Notes: generated by a model not told the origin, from the sequence alone. A stretch of DNA of 14,943 nt from a virus (UHGV-1730386), one strand, 5' to 3'. Counted from the stretch's first letter, positions 1,929 to 12,028 are shown. Numbers and translations: made by a program.

Positions 1929-4628
1929 TTAGTGGACTTCAAGCCACGATTTACCAACCTTACCAGTACCCGTTACCAAAGTATCCTTCTTCAGCCCCAA
2001 GTTTTTAGAAGCTTGACCATAATACCAGTCAGTTACTGCCTTAACTTCTGCTGTCATGCTTTCTGGACATTCCCAGCTTGTTTCGTCGTGGTAAGCACAA
2101 AGTAAACGAGCACCGATAGCTGGCTTACGACCATTTAGTTTCATCAAACCTTCATCAATCATACGACGACAAGCAAGGTTGATTGCTTCATTCTGAACTT
2201 GTGCTTCTGAACCCATCAACAGATAGTTCAAGAGTTTGTGTGGAGATTTACACCACAACCACGCCCCAGCAACCTGAACAAATCCACCTTTAGCAATTGC
2301 AGCAGTTTTACCAAAGACCTCTTCAAGAGCTTTCTTAGTTGCTTTAAAGTCAGCTTCTAAGTTATCAATCAGTTTCTTAATCTTCGGCAAACGAACAAAG
2401 TAAGTCTGCTTAGTCAATGCACCTTCTTGAGTAGTTGAAGCTTTGATGGTCTTAGCAAACTTCTCATCACCCGCACCGAACAGCAGTGCATAGATACCGT
2501 TTTTAGCTTTTTTACGACCCTTACTAATCTCGTGAAGAAGATTCTCATCCTGAGTCATACGACAAGTCAAGATATCCTGCTCATCATTCAAGCTGAAGTA
2601 AATACTGTTCAGTGTGTGAGCATCAGTGCCTGAATAGACTACGTACAAGTCGTTTTCAGAGTCATAACGCAGATACTTGTCAACTTCTGGGTTAAGGTAT
2701 TCGTCGAAGTGTTTGCAGTAATAACGACCATCTTCTTGACGAATAAACTCAATTTCTTCCTTACCTTCTGTTACTGCTTTGGTGAACTCTTTATCACCCA
2801 TAAAGTTACACAGTAACACAAGCTGTGCAGAGTTCATATCAACGGATACTACGTTGGTTCCTTCTTCACAAATCCAGACTGCCCTCATTGGTTCCCCGTA
2901 AACAGCAGCCCCAGAAGGTACGTTCACAATACCATACTGTGTCATACGACCAGTTGAAGTACCAAACACCATTGCACCAGCACTCAAGCGACCATCTGGA
3001 CGAATCTGGTTTAACCAACCTTTCTCGTCATCTTTTGAGTTCTCAATAGTTCTACGTCGGTGCATCAAAGTATAGTACTTCGCAATCTTTTGTCCAAGTT
3101 CACCTTCAATGGTGTCATAAGAAGATTCAGTAAGTTTAGGTGAAGTACGAATCAAGCAAGGCTCAAGCAAATCTGTGTACTTCCTAACAGACCAGTTATG
3201 CTCAATGTAATGAACCCCTTCATGCTCAATGTAGTTCAATCCACAACGTTCAACCATCTCATCCCACTTAGGATGTTTACGAATCATCTTCTTATTATCT
3301 TTGAAGCGACATACCTTGATTGGACGGTTATCAGAATCCTTTTTGTAGTTCCAATCATCAGGAATCCAGCCAACAGATTTCAAGTATTCCTTCACCACTG
3401 CAACTTGAGTCATACGTGAAACTTCAAACTCAATTGGTGTATAAGGTGCATCAACAAGACCTGTGTAACGGCTTGACTCCATTTCAAAGTGATTTACTAC
3501 GTGGTTATTGTAGTACTTCACAGTTTTAACTGTCTTAACTGGCTTCCAATCCTTACACTTCTTGCCAGCCTTAGCATTCAACTCATTGCAGATTGCACGA
3601 GCATCTTTCATTGCTACAAAACCTTCCCTGTACTCTTCACCAGTGACAGTGTTAGTTGGAGTGTAGCAATTACGTTTCTCAATGTTGAAAATCTTTGTAG
3701 TTGGTTTCCCATATGGCTTGATAGGGTACGTCTTCAGTTCCCCTTCACGCATCTGCTCACGATACTTTGTCTTTGGATACTTTGTGATACGTTTCAAACC
3801 ATCTACATGACCAAATGTTTCAACATACTCATTCCATGCCTTGGCAAACTCTTCACCAGTTACTTTACCTTTCGTCTTAATAGTCGGAGGTAAGAACGGT
3901 TCAACTTCAGAGGCTAACTCAGAAGTCATCTTATCCAGTTCTTCTACACAGGACTTCATAAGGTCAATGTTAGCTTTCCAACCATTAATAGCTTGTTGAC
4001 TCATCCAGAAAGAAGTCTCTTTAGCTCGCATGTAGGTTTCGTAAGTATCTACACCACACTTCTTAAGCTTAAGGTATTCATTATCCATAGCACGTTTTGC
4101 TTTGGCGTTGATTCGAATATCCTCAACAACACGGTTAAGAATATCAGCGTTCCACACACCCCACTCTTCAATCTCTGGTTTACGAACACCAACACGAGCA
4201 CCCCATGCAGCCAAGCCATGAGCACCTTTGTAACCTTTTGGTGTAGGTCTATCCATCCACTGCACACGAGATTGTATAAGTGAATCCTGAAAGAAGTCAC
4301 TCCAAGGTTTACACTTAGGATTATCAAAGTTCCACAGGTCAGGTGCAATATGGTTGAACACCCACCAGTCATAACCAAGACCATTGTGGATACAAAGGCG
4401 TTTGGCTTTCAATGCAAACTCCACACCTTCACGCAAACCACCTTTGATGTATTTTGTATACTTGTGACCAAGGATAGGCTCATCAGTGAAAACCCACACA
4501 GCAGGTTCATCACTATCATCTTTGTAATCTGCGAATGCCATAACGTGAGCTTTTGTAAACTCAAGCAGCAACCCGTCAGTTTCTGTATCACCAACCAAAT
4601 GTAAGTTTTCAAAATCTACATTGTTCAT
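1929..4628 (-). CDS. DNA polymerase, family A (Pol I / T7 gp5-like) with N-terminal 3'-5' exonuclease domain
   Basis: 899-aa ORF. Exo I motif VGDTETDGL and an HNGLGYD Exo II-like motif at the N-terminus. Polymerase motif A SVDMNSAQLVLL, motif B (O-helix) RKKAKNGIYALLFGAG, motif C YHDET. GAGGGAG RBS about 6 nt upstream of the ATG at 4628..4626. Confidence 0.92.
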   Translation of the reverse strand: MNNVDFENLHLVGDTETDGLLLEFTKAHVMAFADYKDDSDEPAVWVFTDEPILGHKYTKYIKGGLREGVEFALKAKRLCIHNGLGYDWWVFNHIAPDLWNFDNPKCKPWSDFFQDSLIQSRVQWMDRPTPKGYKGAHGLAAWGARVGVRKPEIEEWGVWNADILNRVVEDIRINAKAKRAMDNEYLKLKKCGVDTYETYMRAKETSFWMSQQAINGWKANIDLMKSCVEELDKMTSELASEVEPFLPPTIKTKGKVTGEEFAKAWNEYVETFGHVDGLKRITKYPKTKYREQMREGELKTYPIKPYGKPTTKIFNIEKRNCYTPTNTVTGEEYREGFVAMKDARAICNELNAKAGKKCKDWKPVKTVKTVKYYNNHVVNHFEMESSRYTGLVDAPYTPIEFEVSRMTQVAVVKEYLKSVGWIPDDWNYKKDSDNRPIKVCRFKDNKKMIRKHPKWDEMVERCGLNYIEHEGVHYIEHNWSVRKYTDLLEPCLIRTSPKLTESSYDTIEGELGQKIAKYYTLMHRRRTIENSKDDEKGWLNQIRPDGRLSAGAMVFGTSTGRMTQYGIVNVPSGAAVYGEPMRAVWICEEGTNVVSVDMNSAQLVLLCNFMGDKEFTKAVTEGKEEIEFIRQEDGRYYCKHFDEYLNPEVDKYLRYDSENDLYVVYSGTDAHTLNSIYFSLNDEQDILTCRMTQDENLLHEISKGRKKAKNGIYALLFGAGDEKFAKTIKASTTQEGALTKQTYFVRLPKIKKLIDNLEADFKATKKALEEVFGKTAAIAKGGFVQVAGAWLWCKSPHKLLNYLLMGSEAQVQNEAINLACRRMIDEGLMKLNGRKPAIGARLLCAYHDETSWECPESMTAEVKAVTDWYYGQASKNLGLKKDTLVTGTGKVGKSWLEVH

Positions 4629-4887
4629 TTTAACTCCCTCTCAAATCATACTGCTTAATACCCTACTCCAATTTTTATGAAAAAGCAAGTTGACAAAGCA
4701 CTTGACAAGGTGTTAATCTTTGCGGAGTGGGTTTTATCTTAATAGACTCTCTTTACAGGTTAACTATACAGATTCTTTAAAACCCTTAAAAGATTTTTAA
4801 TAGCCTTTTAAAAGCTTTAAAGTTATACGTATAGAATACGTAAAGATAAGAGATTAAAATCTTTATAGAAACTTAGTAGAGGCAATT
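4629..4887. promoter_or_regulatory. AT-rich divergent intergenic control region between the leftward polymerase block and the rightward block
   Basis: 259 bp of non-coding DNA flanked by divergent start codons at 4628 (-) and 4888 (+). Contains tandem TTGACAA heptamers (4690..4696, 4702..4708), perfect palindromes CTTTTAAAAG (4805..4814), CTTTAAAG (4815..4822) and TATACGTATA (4824..4833), and a possible leftward promoter (GGTTAA 4758..4763 and ATCTTA 4736..4741 on plus, i.e. TTAACC-N16-TAAGAT on minus). Confidence 0.45.
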
Positions 4888-5311: not shown

Positions 5312-6115
5312 ATGACTACTGTAAATGAAATGCTGTCCTCAAAAGGTATTGATAGTAACTTTATGCTCAATACAATTGAAAGTCTTGCTATTGTAATGCG
5401 TAGCAACACATTCAGTTCCAAGGTAATGCCTGAATCATATCAGGTTAATGGAGATATCTCTGATGAGTCATCGTTTCGCTCACAAGTTAAACTCCTTCTA
5501 AGTGACCGTAAACTCGCTCTGGCATCTGTAGCGGTTGGTGTAGATGCCTTTGCTGGTTATATCTTTGACAACATGCAGACTGGTGACTTTAAAGTTCTTT
5601 CTGAGGAAGAGAAAGAAGGAATCCTTAACTTCTCTGAAGATGCTACCTTTGAACTGATTATCAACTCAATTGCAAGTGTTATGGCTGTTCTTGAGAAGCG
5701 TGTTCAAGATAAACTTCCACGCTATGAACAACTTGATTGGGGGTTCGTAGATATCTTTGAGCGAGTGCTGGAGATGGTGACCCTTACTAGTGAGCAACTT
5801 AAAGAGGTTGTTGCGCGTGAAGCTGAACATGGACTTGATGAGATTCAGGTTAAACTTACCGCATTGGTCCCATCAATCATCACTGTAATGGGTATCCACG
5901 CTCTGTTTGAAGTCGCTCAACTGATTGATGCACCTATAGAGTTTGTTGAGCAGATTGCTGGTGATGTAAGTGGTGAAGCACTACGCGAAGTCATTATGCA
6001 GACTGGTGCAGCAGTACTCCAAGAGAAAATTGCTATCCACTTCGGTGATGAGTTTGTTGAGACTCTTCAGGCTATCTCTGAAAAAGAAAAACTGGACTCT
6101 AACCAGATTCACTAA
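5312..6115 (+). CDS. hypothetical acidic protein (267 aa)
   Basis: ATG one nucleotide after the upstream stop. Strongly acidic composition (many Asp/Glu, few Lys/Arg) and no catalytic motif recognised. Followed by a hairpin and T-tract. Confidence 0.65.
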   Translation: MTTVNEMLSSKGIDSNFMLNTIESLAIVMRSNTFSSKVMPESYQVNGDISDESSFRSQVKLLLSDRKLALASVAVGVDAFAGYIFDNMQTGDFKVLSEEEKEGILNFSEDATFELIINSIASVMAVLEKRVQDKLPRYEQLDWGFVDIFERVLEMVTLTSEQLKEVVAREAEHGLDEIQVKLTALVPSIITVMGIHALFEVAQLIDAPIEFVEQIAGDVSGEALREVIMQTGAAVLQEKIAIHFGDEFVETLQAISEKEKLDSNQIH

Positions 6116-6127
6116 TACAATTGTTTT

Positions 6128-6157
6128 CCCCAAGCCTCCTTAATTGGGGGCTTTTTA
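6128..6157 (+). terminator. candidate rho-independent terminator
   Basis: CCCCAA (6128..6133) pairs with TTGGGG (6144..6149) around a 10-nt loop, then GC and TTTTT (6152..6156). Lies immediately after the stop of ORF 5312..6115. Confidence 0.4.
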
Positions 6158-6173
6158 TTATGAGAGGTTTATT

Positions 6174-6911
6174 ATGAAGAGTATTATTGCATTCACTGGT
6201 AAGGCACGTTCTGGTAAAGATACTTCCTGCACCATCGTTAAGAACCACTTGATTGAAGAAGGCTACGCTGTTAAAGTCTTTGCGTTCGCAGATAATCTTA
6301 AAGCAACTGCTGGAGATATCTTTGACTTAGATTGGCAAGACTTGTATGGCGACACCAAAGAGAAACCTCAGAAATTTGACTTAACATTCTCAAATGTGCA
6401 TAGTAACGTTAAATATTCTTTCTTCAGACACTTGAAAGATAAAGGTATACATAATGATGAGAAACTTTGTGGTGAAATCACAGACAGACTTATCAAAGAA
6501 CTGAAGAAGGTTGCTAAACCGACTCTCTTGACAAGGATGGGTTTCAGGAATGAATACATCTTCTCTTCACGACAAATCCAACAAGTTTGGGGTAGTGAGG
6601 TTATTCGTAAAATCCTTGGGGAGCGTTTCTGGATTATTGACCTTGCAGAAAGAATAGAAAAGTTTTATGGTGAAACAGAAAGAAAAGGCCACATTCCAGT
6701 AATCCTAATTTGTGATTTGAGGTTTGATATTGAAGCTGAATTTATCAAGAGCTATAATAGTCAAATCATCGAAGTGACCAGAAATGGTATTGAGCAGGTT
6801 GCTTCACACCATTCTGAAAAAGGTATCTCTACACGCTTCGAAAGAGATATTATTCAGAACAACGGAACAATAGATGAACTTGCAGATAAACTGAAAGTCA
6901 TCATAAAATAG
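6174..6911 (+). CDS. deoxynucleoside monophosphate kinase (T4 gp1-like dNMP kinase)
   Basis: N-terminal P-loop IIAFTGKARSGKDT, matching the GxxRSGKDT signature of phage dNMP kinases. The track start at 6144 is a TTG inside the terminator; I use the ATG at 6174, preceded by GAGAGG. Confidence 0.7.
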   Translation: MKSIIAFTGKARSGKDTSCTIVKNHLIEEGYAVKVFAFADNLKATAGDIFDLDWQDLYGDTKEKPQKFDLTFSNVHSNVKYSFFRHLKDKGIHNDEKLCGEITDRLIKELKKVAKPTLLTRMGFRNEYIFSSRQIQQVWGSEVIRKILGERFWIIDLAERIEKFYGETERKGHIPVILICDLRFDIEAEFIKSYNSQIIEVTRNGIEQVASHHSEKGISTRFERDIIQNNGTIDELADKLKVIIK

Positions 6912-6924
6912 AGAGATATTGAAG

Positions 6925-7116
6925 ATGAGAGATAATAACTTGAAAGTTGTTGACCACCGTAGTGTAGAACTCTCATCTCTTTCTAAAGAAGTAATGATGG
7001 AGCGACTTGAAAGGGTCGCTTCTCGTCGGAAAGAGATTGCAGAAGAAATTCATGAATTAGATAAGATTGAGAATGGTCTTAAAGCAGAACTGCGTCGTAG
7101 AGGTGTAAATGGCTAA
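6925..7116 (+). CDS. hypothetical small charged/coiled-coil protein (63 aa)
   Basis: The track ORF starts at TTG 6919; I use the ATG at 6925. Sequence is Glu/Lys/Arg-rich and heptad-like. Its stop overlaps the primase-helicase start (ATGGCTAA, 7109..7116). Confidence 0.45.
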   Translation: MRDNNLKVVDHRSVELSSLSKEVMMERLERVASRRKEIAEEIHELDKIENGLKAELRRRGVNG

Positions 7117-9097
7117 ACCAAGAAAATTGAAAGAAGCTGGTCAATTTGTAGGTCATTGTGCATGTCCTAAATGTGATTCTTCAGATGCAGGTTCAATTTA
7201 TCATCACGACGACGACTCATATTCAATGACTTGTTTTAGTTGTGGTAAAGGTTTTCCAGAGTGGGATTTTGATAAAGGTCAAATTGTGAGCACAATGTCC
7301 ACAGGTTCTGATAGTAAAAATCGTAAGTTTCGTGGTATGGATTTAGATGATGTTAAAGAAAACCTCGAAGCAATGGATTTAAAAGACAGGAAGATTCCTG
7401 CAAAGGTTTTAGAACGTCTTGGTATTAAAGTTGACGTAGATGAGAATGGAGATATTGACGCTCATTTCTATCCAACTTATAAGAAGGATGAAGATGGGAA
7501 ATTGAAGCATGTTGGTTATCGAGTTCGTCACAAATACCCTGATGACCACCCTAAAGAACAGCTTCGTGGTAAGTTAAAAGACTTCTCAGGCGGTGTAGGT
7601 GATATTAAAGGTGAACTGGCGATGTTCGGTTCATGGATTGCACCTGAAGGTGGTAATCGCTTATTCATCTGGGAAGGTGAGATGGAATGTGCTACAGCAG
7701 TCTATATGACTTCTTTAGCAATTAAGGATAAGTCACGTAGAAAGAACTACTGTCACGTATCTGTCCCATCTGGTGCAAACGTTAAGTCTATCAAGGAGAA
7801 CTATCAGTACATCACATCCTTTGATGAGATTTACCTTTGCTTCGACAACGATGAAGCAGGTGCTAAGGTAACTAAGGAAGCTGCTGGTATCCTTCCTATT
7901 GAAAAGGTTCGACTGTTCCAGTATCCTGAAGGTGTTAAAGACCTTAGCGAGTGGTGGACTAAATTCTTTAAAGACAAAGATACAGTCTTAGAAGGGTTTA
8001 AGCAGAGAATCTATAATGCACCTCGTTACTGCCCTGCTGGTATTAAGAACTTTGCAGACGGTTTCGAAGCAATGAAGAATCGTGGTCAGATTCCTTTGAT
8101 TCCTTTTCCAGAATCTTTCGGGGATTTGAACAAGTTAACTTATGGTGGTTATGGGTTAGGCGAAATCACTACACTGGCTGCACCGTCATCTGTTGGTAAA
8201 TCTGCCTATACTCGTGAAATGATTTATACAGCATGGAAAGATACTGAGTACAACATTGGTGTAATTCCTGTAGAAGATACTTACGAAGAACTTATGGAAA
8301 TGCTCTGTGCAATCCATCTAAGTAAGCAGATTTCAGAGATTCCTTACGATGAGCGAGATTGGGATGAGCTAAAAGGAGCACATGCGGATTTGTCAAAAGG
8401 TCGTCGTATTCACATCGTAGACCATCAAGGGGCAATTGACCAAGACAACTTGCTAGAATTTGTTGACTATCTTGTTAACAGTCTTGATTGTAAGATTATC
8501 ATCCTTGACCCAATTACATTGGCTTTGTCACGCTCTGATACTGACGAAGAAGAAGTCCTGTCTGAACTGTTGCGTCGTTGCAAGCGTTATCAGTATGCTC
8601 AGGTAAACGTATGTCACGTTCGTAAGAGCGCAGGTGGTCAGAAAGCTAACTCTGAAGGTGGAGATATCTCTGAAGAAGATATCAAGGGTTCTGGTGCATA
8701 CTTCCAGATTTCTATGAACAACATTTTGTTAATGCGCAACAAGGTTGACCCAGACCCTGTTAAGAAAAACTTGACAAAAATCAAGTTAACTAAATGTCGT
8801 CGTCATGGTAAATCCACTGGTATTGCTGGTCACACTTGGTATAATCCAGAAACAGGCCGTCTTATCAAGGCTGCTGGTTGTGGTGTTGATATTGATGGTG
8901 CAGCAGAGAATATCCGTCAGCAGTATGGTATTGGTGATGCTGAAGACCATTACGATGATACCATGCCACACTATGAAGATGAAGCATTTGACCGTGATAC
9001 TGGAGAGTTGTATACTCAAGAGCAACGTCAGAGTTCTACAATTCCTCCTGCAATCAATGAGGATGGTGATGATGACTGCCCGTTTGAAACTGACTGA
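7109..9097 (+). CDS. bifunctional DNA primase-helicase (T7 gp4-like: zinc ribbon, TOPRIM primase, DnaB-family helicase)
   Basis: 662 aa. N-terminal zinc ribbon CACPKCDS...CFSCGKG. TOPRIM acidic motifs WEGEMECA and CFDNDEAG. Helicase Walker A AAPSSVGKSAY and Walker B IIILDPIT. Acidic C-terminus ending DDDCPFETD. Confidence 0.9.
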   Translation: MAKPRKLKEAGQFVGHCACPKCDSSDAGSIYHHDDDSYSMTCFSCGKGFPEWDFDKGQIVSTMSTGSDSKNRKFRGMDLDDVKENLEAMDLKDRKIPAKVLERLGIKVDVDENGDIDAHFYPTYKKDEDGKLKHVGYRVRHKYPDDHPKEQLRGKLKDFSGGVGDIKGELAMFGSWIAPEGGNRLFIWEGEMECATAVYMTSLAIKDKSRRKNYCHVSVPSGANVKSIKENYQYITSFDEIYLCFDNDEAGAKVTKEAAGILPIEKVRLFQYPEGVKDLSEWWTKFFKDKDTVLEGFKQRIYNAPRYCPAGIKNFADGFEAMKNRGQIPLIPFPESFGDLNKLTYGGYGLGEITTLAAPSSVGKSAYTREMIYTAWKDTEYNIGVIPVEDTYEELMEMLCAIHLSKQISEIPYDERDWDELKGAHADLSKGRRIHIVDHQGAIDQDNLLEFVDYLVNSLDCKIIILDPITLALSRSDTDEEEVLSELLRRCKRYQYAQVNVCHVRKSAGGQKANSEGGDISEEDIKGSGAYFQISMNNILLMRNKVDPDPVKKNLTKIKLTKCRRHGKSTGIAGHTWYNPETGRLIKAAGCGVDIDGAAENIRQQYGIGDAEDHYDDTMPHYEDEAFDRDTGELYTQEQRQSSTIPPAINEDGDDDCPFETD

Positions 9098-9350
9098 TAG
9101 TTATCTGAAGGAGGGCATCACGCCCTTCTATTCAGAAAATAGCACTAAAAAATTTGCAAAAGATTGCTTGACTAAGATTGAAGAGTTCGCTAAAGTACTA
9201 ATCAACAAGGGGCATGATGTTACTTATGAACATGAAAGCCGTGAAGATAAAGACTTGTTTGCACTGTCAATTGACAAAGCTGAAACAATTTATCTTTTTA
9301 CCTTGACTTTAAAAACATTTGAATATGAAATATATCGGAGCACAAAATGA
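9072..9350 (+). CDS. hypothetical protein (about 92 aa; start uncertain, overlaps the primase-helicase 3' end)
   Basis: The frame is open from inside the helicase gene to TGA 9348..9350. The only ATGs are at 9057/9063/9069/9072, before the helicase stop; GAGGA at 9060..9064 sits upstream of 9072. Its stop overlaps the next ATG (ATGA at 9347..9350). The track ORF 8805..9350 is an over-extension. Confidence 0.3.
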   Translation: MTARLKLTDSYLKEGITPFYSENSTKKFAKDCLTKIEEFAKVLINKGHDVTYEHESREDKDLFALSIDKAETIYLFTLTLKTFEYEIYRSTK

Positions 9351-9484
9351 AACACTCTAAAGCATTTGAAGCAGTATTTGGAGATTCCCTGAAAGCAACT
9401 GCTGGTAAGTCTGCTGAACATTACAAAACGAAGCGAGTTCGCACTGGTAAGACTGCTCGTAAAGCTGCCAAGAAAGCTGCTTAA
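9347..9484 (+). CDS. hypothetical small Lys/Ala-rich basic protein (45 aa)
   Basis: MKHSKAFEAVFGDSLKATAGKSAEHYKTKRVRTGKTARKAAKKAA. GGAG at 9337..9340 lies 6 nt upstream of the ATG, which overlaps the upstream stop. Below the length cut-off of the supplied track. Confidence 0.4.
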   Translation: MKHSKAFEAVFGDSLKATAGKSAEHYKTKRVRTGKTARKAAKKAA

Positions 9485-9489
9485 AATGT

Positions 9490-9518
9490 TTGACATGGGG
9501 GTATGAAGCATGTAAGAT
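9490..9518 (+). promoter_or_regulatory. candidate sigma70-like promoter upstream of the SSB-like gene (TTGACA-N17-TAAGAT)
   Basis: Perfect -35 TTGACA at 9490..9495, a 17-nt spacer, then TAAGAT at 9513..9518 (4/6 to TATAAT). Downstream RBS AGAAAGAGG precedes ATG 9572. Sequence match only. Confidence 0.4.
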
Positions 9519-9571
9519 TGTACTCCCAATAAGATTTGAATTGATAGTTAATTTGAGAAAGAGGTATTAAA

Positions 9572-10426
9572 ATGTCTAAAGTTGTTAAAATGAAATCTCC
9601 GGTAGAAAAATACAACGGTAAAGAACTTGAAACTTATCGTTACCTGCTGAAAGATGTTTGGTTCTACTACTTGAATACTATTCCACGTCCTCAGAAGGGC
9701 AAGTCTGTAGACAAACATTTCCCAGGCAAAGACTGTAATTACAGCGTTTCAATTCTGGCAAAAGACGGTAACAAGCTCTTTAAAGAGTTCACCAAGTCTA
9801 AAAAAAATCCAGATGGTTGGGATAAGGTCACTACAGAGACTGTTGATGCAGATGACTTTGAAGAGAAGTTTGGTTGTGAGCCTCCATTCGAAGCTGACAC
9901 TTATTACATCCTGAAGGTTAGCCGTTCAGCAGCTTACAAAGATGGTGCTGTATGGTCAGCAAAACAGAGTTTCCCTGTGATGCTGGTTGAAGAACTGAAC
10001 GGTAAACGTGTTGCGGTTAAGCAACCTATGAAGAAAATTAAGGCAGCAAAATCTGACAAGCATGACGATGACAAGACTTACGATGTTGTCTGTCCAGATA
10101 TTGCAGTCGGTAATGGTTCTTTTGGTAGTGTGATTCTTTCGACTCACTTCTACACCTTCGAAGGTAACGTTCTAACTAAGCCAATTCAGGAGCAGTTTAT
10201 CATTGATACTCTGGTTCCATACACTGGTGGTACTGGTGGTGCAACCGAGACTGAACTTGATGAAGACGAACTGGCACTGCTTGGTCTCGCAGGTGTTGAA
10301 GACAACGGTGAAATCTCTGAAGAAGATGCAAAAGATTCTGATGATGATAAAGGTGGTGACGACGATGACGACGACCTGCCAACACCGGATGATGACGACG
10401 AAGACTTCGAGACTGACGACGAATAA
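9572..10426 (+). CDS. putative single-stranded DNA-binding protein with acidic C-terminal tail (T7 gp2.5-like architecture)
   Basis: 284 aa with a long poly-Asp/Glu tail ending DDDDDDLPTPDDDDEDFETDDE. Sits between primase-helicase and exonuclease, as in T7-like replication modules. Has the best promoter-like sequence in the window upstream and a terminator downstream. Call rests on architecture and position, not on sequence identity. Confidence 0.5.
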   Translation: MSKVVKMKSPVEKYNGKELETYRYLLKDVWFYYLNTIPRPQKGKSVDKHFPGKDCNYSVSILAKDGNKLFKEFTKSKKNPDGWDKVTTETVDADDFEEKFGCEPPFEADTYYILKVSRSAAYKDGAVWSAKQSFPVMLVEELNGKRVAVKQPMKKIKAAKSDKHDDDKTYDVVCPDIAVGNGSFGSVILSTHFYTFEGNVLTKPIQEQFIIDTLVPYTGGTGGATETELDEDELALLGLAGVEDNGEISEEDAKDSDDDKGGDDDDDDLPTPDDDDEDFETDDE

Positions 10427-10488: not shown

Positions 10489-11529
10489 ATGAATCAGTAT
10501 ACACTTACAAAGCTCCCAGAAAGCGTTACACACGTCTTCATTGACGCAGACAGCATTGCTTACAAGGGTGCTTGTGTAGTTGAAAAAGCAAAGTACAAGT
10601 ATGTGAATAAACTTACCGCTGAAGAGTCTGATGACTTTGATAGTGCTAAGTTAGCTTCACAATGGTTAGCTGACCAGAGAGTTCTTACAGAGGAACTTGG
10701 ACTTGACTTTGATGAAGATGAGTGGGAAAGACAGACTTGGAAGGAAGCCAAGAGCGAAAAAGAAGCTATTATGGCAACTCAGCAGGTTCTTCAAGAATGG
10801 CTTAAAGTTGTCGGTAAAGAGCGTCAATGGATGGGTTACCTGACTGAGAAGGGTGTTCACAAACACAAAGACATTAAAGGTCTTGAACATCAATATCAAG
10901 GTAACAGGAAAGATGCGGTGACACCTACGCACCTAGTTGCTTGTCGTGAGTATCTTCTGTCACGACCTGAGTTTAAGCTTCTCAAAGGTGGCTTTGAAGC
11001 TGACTCAATCGTTATTGCAAAAGCTGAAAAGATGGGTAAAAAAGCTGCTCTTATGAGTATTGATAAAGACCTTCGTCAAGCTGAAGGTACATATTGTATT
11101 GATATGACTTATGAGAAAGCACCACTTATCTTTATTGCTGATAATAACATTGGAGAGATTTGGGATTGCCCTATCAAATCCAAACCAAAAGCTAAGAAGA
11201 CAGTCGGAGTAGGCTTCAAATTCCTCTGCTATCAAGCTGTAGCAGGTGATAATGCAGATAACTACTTTGGCCTTAAGGGTGCTGGTAAAGTTGCTGTAAT
11301 GAACGCTCTGGAAGGTAAAACAACCTATAGAGAATGTTTAGATGCTGTTTATGAGTTGTATGCAAAGAAAGACTCTTACACCTATGTGTCGTGGGACGGT
11401 CAAACAATTACCAGAACACCTTTAGAGTTAATGCACCAGCACTTCTGGATTGCATACCAAGAGCGAAATCCAAAGGATGATTTCACGTTTGAAAAATATG
11501 GATGGGAGCCTACTATGAATGAAGATTAA
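10489..11529 (+). CDS. 5'-3' exonuclease / flap endonuclease (T7 gp6 / RNase H-like, PIN-fold family)
   Basis: 346 aa. N-terminal acidic motif VFIDADSIAYKG, central IDKDLRQAEG, and C-terminal AGDNADNYFGLKGAGKVAV, arranged like the metal-binding Asp clusters and helix-hairpin-helix region of phage 5'-3' exonucleases. GGAGG RBS at 10480..10484. Confidence 0.7.
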   Translation: MNQYTLTKLPESVTHVFIDADSIAYKGACVVEKAKYKYVNKLTAEESDDFDSAKLASQWLADQRVLTEELGLDFDEDEWERQTWKEAKSEKEAIMATQQVLQEWLKVVGKERQWMGYLTEKGVHKHKDIKGLEHQYQGNRKDAVTPTHLVACREYLLSRPEFKLLKGGFEADSIVIAKAEKMGKKAALMSIDKDLRQAEGTYCIDMTYEKAPLIFIADNNIGEIWDCPIKSKPKAKKTVGVGFKFLCYQAVAGDNADNYFGLKGAGKVAVMNALEGKTTYRECLDAVYELYAKKDSYTYVSWDGQTITRTPLELMHQHFWIAYQERNPKDDFTFEKYGWEPTMNED

Positions 11530-12028
11530 AGGTTTCGGTAATTGTCCTGTTTATGGTCATTGGGTATCTTTATGCGGGGAAGTTGACCCCGCTAAACTGT
11601 TCGGGTTTGTCTACCTAGTCTATTGTAAGAAAACTGGACAGTATTACATTGGTAAAAAACAGTTCAATAGTATCACTAAGAAGAAGGTTGCTGGAAAGAC
11701 CAGACGTAAGGTTGTCACCAAAGAGAGTGACTGGATGGTTTACCAGACTTCTTCTGAGTACATTAAGAAAGATATTGAAGCTTTTGGTATGAAAGAGTTT
11801 GACTTCTACATTGTGCAAACCTATTATACACGAGGTGGATTAGTCTACGGAGAAGCAAATCTCCAACATAAGTTCGATGTTATGACAAAAAGGATTGACT
11901 CGAAACTCAGACTCTTCTACAATGCCAATATTGCAGCTATCAAGTTCCTTACAAAAGAAACTTATGAAGAAGCTGAGAAACGTATTAACAAAATCATGAA
12001 ACTTAACGAGAGAGAAAATCATGTTTAA
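11519..12028 (+). CDS. putative GIY-YIG family nuclease (single-domain, 169 aa)
   Basis: FGFVYLVYCKKTGQYYIGKKQF matches the GIY-(10-11 aa)-YIG pattern with VYL replacing GIY. It is followed by a basic stretch with Arg (KTRRK), then FDFYIVQ, a conserved-position Glu (GEANL) and YNAN (the GYN-like Asn). Start overlaps the exonuclease stop by 11 nt. Confidence 0.5.
   Translation: MKIKGFGNCPVYGHWVSLCGEVDPAKLFGFVYLVYCKKTGQYYIGKKQFNSITKKKVAGKTRRKVVTKESDWMVYQTSSEYIKKDIEAFGMKEFDFYIVQTYYTRGGLVYGEANLQHKFDVMTKRIDSKLRLFYNANIAAIKFLTKETYEEAEKRINKIMKLNERENHV

Follow-up and report, generated by a model that had tools for sequence, protein, structure and literature searches.

A shared acidic, aromatic C-terminal tip on the primase-helicase and the gp2.5-type single-stranded DNA-binding protein in a Felix O1-like phage

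[quoted passage not shown] The sequence is UHGV-1730386, a stretch of 14,943 nucleotides that is called the window throughout, and its source is a phage of the Ounavirinae (Mooglevirus). The two genes concerned occupy 3.3 kb that are 99% identical to Shigella phage ESh22 and 86-88% identical to many other phages of the Felix O1 group from Shigella, Citrobacter, Escherichia and Salmonella. Both are on the plus strand, the first encoding a T7 gp4-type primase-helicase of 662 residues (7109-9097) and the second a protein of 284 residues (9572-10426), with two small open reading frames (ORFs) between them. The original prediction was that both proteins carry a C-terminal tail containing FETD, within a span, 8990-10426, that takes in the helicase tail, the two small ORFs and the entire second gene.

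The shared tail is there. The primase-helicase is a single chain with Pfam domains Toprim_2 at residues 222-281 and DnaB_C at 336-494, belongs to phrog_239 'DNA primase/helicase' (E 3e-180), and is annotated likewise in ESh22 and its relatives. It ends in ...NEDGDDDCPFETD (in the ORF listing, ...AINEDGDDDCPFETD), with FETD at residues 659-662 (TTT GAA ACT GAC, 9083-9094) preceded by NEDGDDDCP. The motif is at the tip of a C-terminal extension (8864-9094) that runs for 77 residues beyond the conserved ...YNPETGRL, 29% of them Asp or Glu. Orthologues differ greatly throughout this extension, the tip excepted; in relatives with 56-93% identity to the whole protein the approximately 70 residues before the tip cannot be aligned, and most end in F-x-T-x. 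The 284-residue protein ends in ...DDDDEDFETDDE (in the ORF listing, ...DDDDDDLPTPDDDDEDFETDDE; tail peptide PDDDDEDFETDDE), with FETD at residues 279-282 (TTC GAG ACT GAC, 10406-10417) followed by DE. Here the tip closes a disordered acidic tail, residues 219-284 (10226-10423), with 48% Asp or Glu, two Lys or Arg, and a predicted local distance difference test score (pLDDT) of 30-40. The tail varies in length and sequence among orthologues, except for an ELDEDELAxLG segment and the tip, where in the family alignment F279 is invariant and T281 nearly invariant down to 43% identity.

In distant primase-helicases, those with 42-47% identity (P0033-P0083, and L015:7001-8938), there is a second element in the tail, which reads [PA]-[LI]-N-[SG]-F-[GEQN] and precedes a terminal or near-terminal Trp by about 5-12 residues. 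This element was not found among the SSB tails examined.

The name 'SSB-like' was a guess made without database support, and it proves to be correct, both by fold and by a bridge of profiles. The 284-residue protein has no Pfam match, no NCBIfam match, and no significant match in a profile search of PDB sequences. Its only PHROG match is to phrog_3877 ('unknown function'), with no direct match to phrog_112. The GenBank labels of its orthologues are nearly all 'hypothetical protein', with one Erwinia phage record reading 'putative SSDNA-binding protein'; other labels, 'methyltransferase' in Yersinia P778 and 'putative DNA primase/helicase' in JLBYU32 and SunLIRen, look wrong. A fold search identifies the gp2.5 fold, and hhalign of the profile against T7 gp2.5 gives 68% probability over strands with a common I-G-x-G-S motif. 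An exhaustive profile search finds 163 relatives of gp2.5-like size. P0178, P0184, P0192, P0206 and the SSB of lineage L015 match both phrog_3877 and phrog_112, the latter being the 'Gp2.5-like ssDNA binding protein' group that T7 gp2.5 itself matches at 1.8e-56. In the genomes and contigs inspected the gene is always between the primase-helicase and the exonuclease. On the strength of the gp2.5 fold, the PHROG bridge through intermediates and the fixed gene position, the protein is assigned as the gp2.5-type SSB of this phage, and single-stranded DNA (ssDNA) binding is predicted.

Like the known members of the T7-type SSB family (T7 gp2.5, 1JE5; Enc34 ORF6, 5ODK; DUF2815, 4KLK; phrog_112), it has an oligonucleotide/oligosaccharide-binding (OB) fold core, the IGxGS strand motif seen by hhalign, a disordered acidic C-terminus, and a location in the replication module. 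Unlike them, it has only 14-15% sequence identity to the family and is linked to phrog_112 solely via intermediates. Its OB-fold domain (residues 1-218, 9572-10225) is larger, with additional N-terminal strands and a hairpin inserted at about 136-156, and it has only short helices where gp2.5 has a long helix.

Could the likeness of the two tails be due to chance, or be a by-product of the DNA itself? That two acidic tails should have one tetrapeptide in common is no more than modestly improbable: when the 168 ORFs of at least 60 residues from the complete genome of Felix O1 are paired, 12 of the 14,028 pairs (0.09%) have some 4-mer in common within the final 12 residues. The motif [FWY]-x-T-[DE], however, is present in the last 10 residues of just two of these 168 ORFs, which are the primase-helicase and SSB orthologues, with one additional chance match when ORFs of at least 30 residues are included (n = 390). 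A copied DNA segment or gene conversion was rejected as the source, since the FETD codons of the two genes differ synonymously in the window as in each of the other genomes inspected. There is a real overlap at the end of the helicase gene, where a small plus-strand ORF (about 9069-9350, annotated in ESh22 and Felix O1) begins within the last 29 or so nucleotides in a different frame, which makes the helicase tip codons dual-coding in the lineage of the window. That this ORF imposes the motif was also rejected, as the helicase motif is kept in Erwinia phage phiEa21-4 and in L010, where the end of the helicase gene is free of any overlapping ORF, and no gene overlaps the SSB motif. Conservation in orthologues, which reaches across lineages down to 43% identity, settles that the shared tail is beyond chance. 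The codon, distribution and synteny data thus effectively refute a chance origin, a DNA copy and a constraint from the overlapping small ORF, and the probability that any of them accounts for the motif is very small.

Absence of the FETD motif from orthologues had been named with the original prediction as the observation that would speak against it, and the orthologues were compared as 16 genome-matched helicase and SSB pairs, 14 from lineages of the clade and two from outgroups (L015 and L021). The comparison does not refute the prediction. The SSB tip [FW]-x-T-[DEN] is present in all 14 clade lineages, in some with more acidic residues beyond it. The helicase tip F-x-T-x is present in 12 of the 14, is degenerate in one, and is lacking in one. 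The window has CPFETD on the helicase and DFETDDE on the SSB; given in the same order, the tips are CPFETE and DFDTED in Felix O1, CPFETE and APFETE in L010, GFETE and DFDTEDDEE in L011, IPFRTE and VPFKTE in phiEa21-4, and GFQTE and GFQTE in Pectobacterium phage Wc4. Those with other last residues on the helicase are EFQTA and NFETE in L007, GFVTA and DFETE in L008, QFSTT and EFETD in Yersinia P778, NFVTV and DFETE in L018, DFVTT and GFETE in L019, and GFETN and DWETE in L020. In L016 a degenerate helicase end, DFVIDRGKDY, is paired with DWETE, and in Hafnia phage SarahDanielle a helicase without the motif is paired with EWETN.

The tips also co-vary within genomes. Over the positions -2, -1, +1 and +3 from the aromatic, the BLOSUM sum is 79 for same-genome pairs against a mean of 40 when the pairings are permuted (P = 0.007; P = 0.0016 with close sister lineages dropped), a signal driven mainly by phiEa21-4, Wc4 and L010 among lineages that are phylogenetically non-independent. 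This co-variation is supportive, not decisive. In the distant outgroups both proteins carry Trp tips instead, ...REEQW on the helicase and ...DDDEW on the SSB in L015, the latter confirmed as gp2.5-like, and ...VLGWE and ...NDDEW in L021, so that, as far as the sequences go, the principle of a shared tip extends to them. A third small protein of L015 (120 residues, L015:5995-6357), encoded just upstream of the primase-helicase, ends in ...GGLDDDF, an acidic aromatic tip of the T7 style, and may be an additional client of the same docking site.

The wider relatives of the SSB suggest where the tip came from. The aromatic is terminal in 92 of 148, typically as ...DD[ILVS]PF or ...DDEW, and is within the last four residues without being terminal in another 36 (128/148 combined). 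The [FW]-x-T-E tip is limited among the 148 to the closest relatives, and canonical ...DDD[IL]PF ends are found only in more distant ones, of which there are many (for example ...DDDLPF in P0015). Since the wider relatives end in a terminal aromatic, x-T-[DE] would be a clade-specific extension, and the Felix O1-type tip is best read as an ancestral acidic-Pro-Phe tip to which this extension has been added, in the SSB and in the helicase alike.

It might be argued that the two tails are independent, that of the SSB tuning its binding to ssDNA and that of the helicase serving, for example, hexamer regulation or contact with the primase, with their likeness a convergence on acidic-plus-aromatic composition. 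Such tails are near-universal in phage and bacterial SSBs, as the 128 relatives illustrate, and the helicase motif is both looser than that of the SSB and missing in one lineage. Generic composition does not, however, predict an invariant Thr two residues past the aromatic in both proteins, nor the same clade-specific extension of three residues in both. Neither does it predict the matched changes, with Arg and Lys at F+1 in phiEa21-4, Gln in both proteins of Wc4, and both tips altered to a terminal Trp in the outgroups. Independence of the two tails is therefore quite improbable, and a docking peptide shared by helicase and SSB is well supported by the comparison of orthologues.

What, then, would the peptide dock onto? 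In T7, PDB entry 6P7E shows gp5 with the C-terminal DTDF peptide of gp4 bound to it, and the gp2.5 tail anchors on the same front basic patch of gp5, K587/K589/R590/R591 (PMC12339929). This gp2.5 tail has contacts with both helicase and polymerase, and ssDNA is its competitor for the OB groove (PMC10359462; PMC5686142). The window encodes a T7 gp5-type family A DNA polymerase of 899 residues on the minus strand (1929-4628; Pfam DNA_pol_A). Its best PDB sequence match is T7 gp5 (E 2e-10, compared with 5e-4 for Taq), and the top 27 Foldseek matches of its model (pLDDT 88.7) are all T7 gp5, with E-values down to 3e-27, the first being 6P7E, the gp5 complex with the gp4 tail peptide. By sequence and model the polymerase, the primase-helicase and the SSB are each T7-type, and because all three counterparts are present the T7 wiring is the most economical reading.

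On that basis the two tips are probably, though by no means securely, alternative ligands of one receptor site at the replication fork, which by homology with T7 would most likely be on the gp5-type polymerase. Each protein bears a long, flexible, acidic C-terminal arm, with a tip made of an acidic run, an optional Pro, Phe or Trp, one variable residue, the invariant Thr, and Asp or Glu. Docking of the helicase tip would hold polymerase and helicase together while the leading strand is synthesised and polymerases exchange, and docking of the SSB tip would let the polymerase engage and displace the SSB on the lagging strand. When free of DNA, the SSB tail probably folds onto its own DNA-binding groove, as it does in T7.

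Several observations, besides the dependence of the co-variation on a few related lineages, weigh against this arrangement. The T7 front basic patch (K587, K589, R590, R591) is not conserved, as BLASTP pairs VKWKRRWIK with AIAKGGFVQ, and the segment equivalent to KWKRRW is kept in the clade as [AS]I[AS]KGGF. Of the T7-like contact originally proposed, the T7 type of the three proteins is supported, while the docking site of T7 is not conserved in sequence. With KWKRRW aligned to IAKGGF the receptor must differ from that of T7; we infer a common binding site and its place on the polymerase, and this site would then be unlike the T7 front patch in sequence. In place of the T7 gp5 thioredoxin-binding loop there is a folded insertion, about 85 residues long, with strands at 289-326, a helix at 340-354 and a strand at 361-373, and the lysine-rich hairpin at 355-373 is weakened as a conserved receptor by P0132, in which the motif is present but the polymerase is shorter and the equivalent segment is not basic. 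On the helicase side, the motif was not found in any frame in Hafnia SarahDanielle, so that there is no hidden frameshift that would restore it, and with the tip of L016 degenerate as well the helicase contact must be dispensable or replaceable. The helicase motif is also the looser of the two, with E, Q, R, V or S at F+1 and E, D, A, T, V or N at the last position, which allows the roles of the two tips to be non-identical.

Inserted right after the primase-helicase in L016, the lineage with the degenerate tip, there is a gene for a PIF1-family helicase (L016:8950-10320).

If the polymerase does carry the receptor, there are places to look for it. Compared with T7 gp5 and with shorter relatives, it has three folded, clade-specific insertions, at about 289-373, 438-497 and 625-665. 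The first, which by sequence and model contains a lysine-rich segment, suggests by its position at the thioredoxin loop a built-in processivity or docking module replacing the host thioredoxin partner. Four basic residues, R201, K729, K749 and K751, are invariant specifically in the clade, the last three in a stretch that is homologous to T7 542-563 and is upstream of the T7 patch. These residues and the lysine-rich segments at 350-375 and 432-456 are weak leads as candidate receptor features. A more specific version of docking on the polymerase, put forward tentatively and with less than even confidence, is that the T7 mechanism has been rewired. Recognition would have moved away from an acidic run with a C-terminal aromatic carboxylate seated on a basic patch, and the internal [FW]-x-T-[DE] would be read by a different, clade-specific polymerase pocket, which could be in one of the three lineage-specific folded insertions or close to K729/K749/K751. 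The invariant Thr would serve as a determinant of specificity or regulation, for example by being phosphorylatable, and helicase, SSB and receptor would co-evolve as a unit of three.

The receptor may instead be something other than the polymerase: the groove of the SSB, the primase-helicase, some further protein of the phage, or a protein of the host that normally binds the tip of its SSB. Conservation and co-variation indicate a common constraint but are silent on which partner imposes it, and the lack of conservation of the T7 basic patch fits such a receptor. The T7 tail also binds the groove of its own SSB and the helicase, so that self-inhibition can be envisaged, with the helicase tail passing ssDNA to the SSB; this would account for the SSB tail, but not for a helicase that bears the same tip. 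For the host, the E. coli SSB ends in DDDIPF and the bacterial SSB tip is a hub for many partner proteins. The phage tips closely resemble it, having an acidic run and then Pro-Phe in the helicases of the window (DDDCPF-ETD) and phiEa21-4 (DDDDIPF-RTE), and ...DDD[IL]PF is the precise ending of many relatives of the window SSB, among them those with ...DDDLPF. Host SSB-tip receptors, however, require a terminal Phe with its carboxylate free, and the x-T-[DE] extension does away with this, in DEDF-ETDDE of the window SSB as in DDDCPF-ETD. The window SSB also differs from the bacterial SSB in having the gp2.5-type fold and not that of the bacterial tetramer, and in that a helicase bears the tip too. 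With all three T7 counterparts present, a receptor away from the polymerase is considered unlikely.

Between the two acidic-tailed genes there is a conserved, very basic ORF of 45 residues (9347-9484, plus strand; phrog_4424; ...HYKTKRVRTGKTARKAAKKAA), with R-x-R-[TI]-G-K-T-R-K retained by the orthologues of Wc4 and L016. The ORF is missing in L010, phiEa21-4 and Hafnia SarahDanielle, all three of which have the SSB tail and, Hafnia excepted, the helicase tail, so it is not an essential partner of the tails.

How far, then, does the likeness to T7 go? The gp4-type primase-helicase, gp2.5-fold SSB and gp5-type polymerase are accompanied by a T7 gp6-type 5'-3' exonuclease (10489-11529, plus strand; phrog_107, E 9e-64), annotated in Felix O1 as exodeoxyribonuclease, gene 6, which completes the T7-like replication module. 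As in T7, a flexible acidic arm closes both helicase and SSB, a single critical aromatic is near its tip, and within one phage the two tips are alike. The T7 tails, read from NC_001604, are ...DWSNDTDF for gp4 and ...EEADEDGDF for gp2.5. The window tails are not aromatic-terminated like these: the aromatic is not the last residue, the Phe being fourth from the end in the helicase and sixth in the SSB, and is followed by x-T-[DE], with two further acidic residues in the SSB and the Thr at +2 invariant. The arms are also much longer, with 77 residues after ETGRL in the helicase against 22 after ETGWL in gp4, and 66 residues in the SSB tail. In the polymerase the front basic patch is not conserved, one insertion takes the place of the thioredoxin-binding loop, and two more insertions are present. 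The genomes differ as well, that of the Felix O1 type being of an 86-90 kb myovirus and that of T7 of a 40 kb podovirus.

The rest of the replication module in the window includes a deoxynucleoside monophosphate kinase (6144-6911), a GIY-YIG-like endonuclease, a MazG-like protein, and a DNA ligase on the minus strand (249-1004) with an ORF shortened by a frameshift. The ligase ORF tracks that of Felix O1 to ...DICDNTKSWPEK, diverges near nucleotides 365-370 and stops at 249, and the remainder (REVIDNSP...EHPEEFI) runs on in a different minus-strand frame as far as the edge of the window; relative to Felix O1 this is a sequencing error, or else a genuine pseudogene or recoding site. A 260-nucleotide intergenic region (about 4629-4887) separates the divergent polymerase from the plus-strand replication genes, and has both a change of sign in guanine-cytosine (GC) skew and the lowest GC content of the window. 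It is likely to be a divergent promoter region and is possibly origin-related. Two labels in the window look wrong. The 'NAD synthetase' at 11519-12028 on the plus strand (RefSeq, phrog_447) has a further match to a PHROG of homing endonucleases, and relatives of it match Pfam SegE_GIY-YIG. The plus-strand ORF at 5312-6115 bears the label 'minor tail protein' (phrog_4251) despite its position inside the replication module.

In the literature, no paper was found that links Felixounavirus, Ounavirinae or Felix O1-type phages with an SSB, gp2.5 or the tip motif, and the main text of Lopes et al. 2010 (PMC2896510) is silent on Felix O1. The shared tail of T7 is already known; what is new is the Felix O1-type variant of the tip and a function for an unannotated family. 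Replicative gp2.5-type SSB function is hereby assigned to phrog_3877, which is 'hypothetical' in about 300 deposited genomes of Felix O1-like phages, a group in wide use in Salmonella typing, biocontrol and therapy. The T7 principle, in which look-alike tails of helicase and SSB compete for one site, appears to be valid beyond the Autographiviridae, with a tip sequence that drifts in step in the two proteins. The natural matched variants, F-x-T-E, terminal PF and terminal W, are material for understanding what specifies the contacts of a replisome and how these contacts evolve, and the tip motif is a handle for mutagenesis, peptide competition and structural work, as well as a simple marker for those SSBs in T7-like replication modules that sequence searches overlook.

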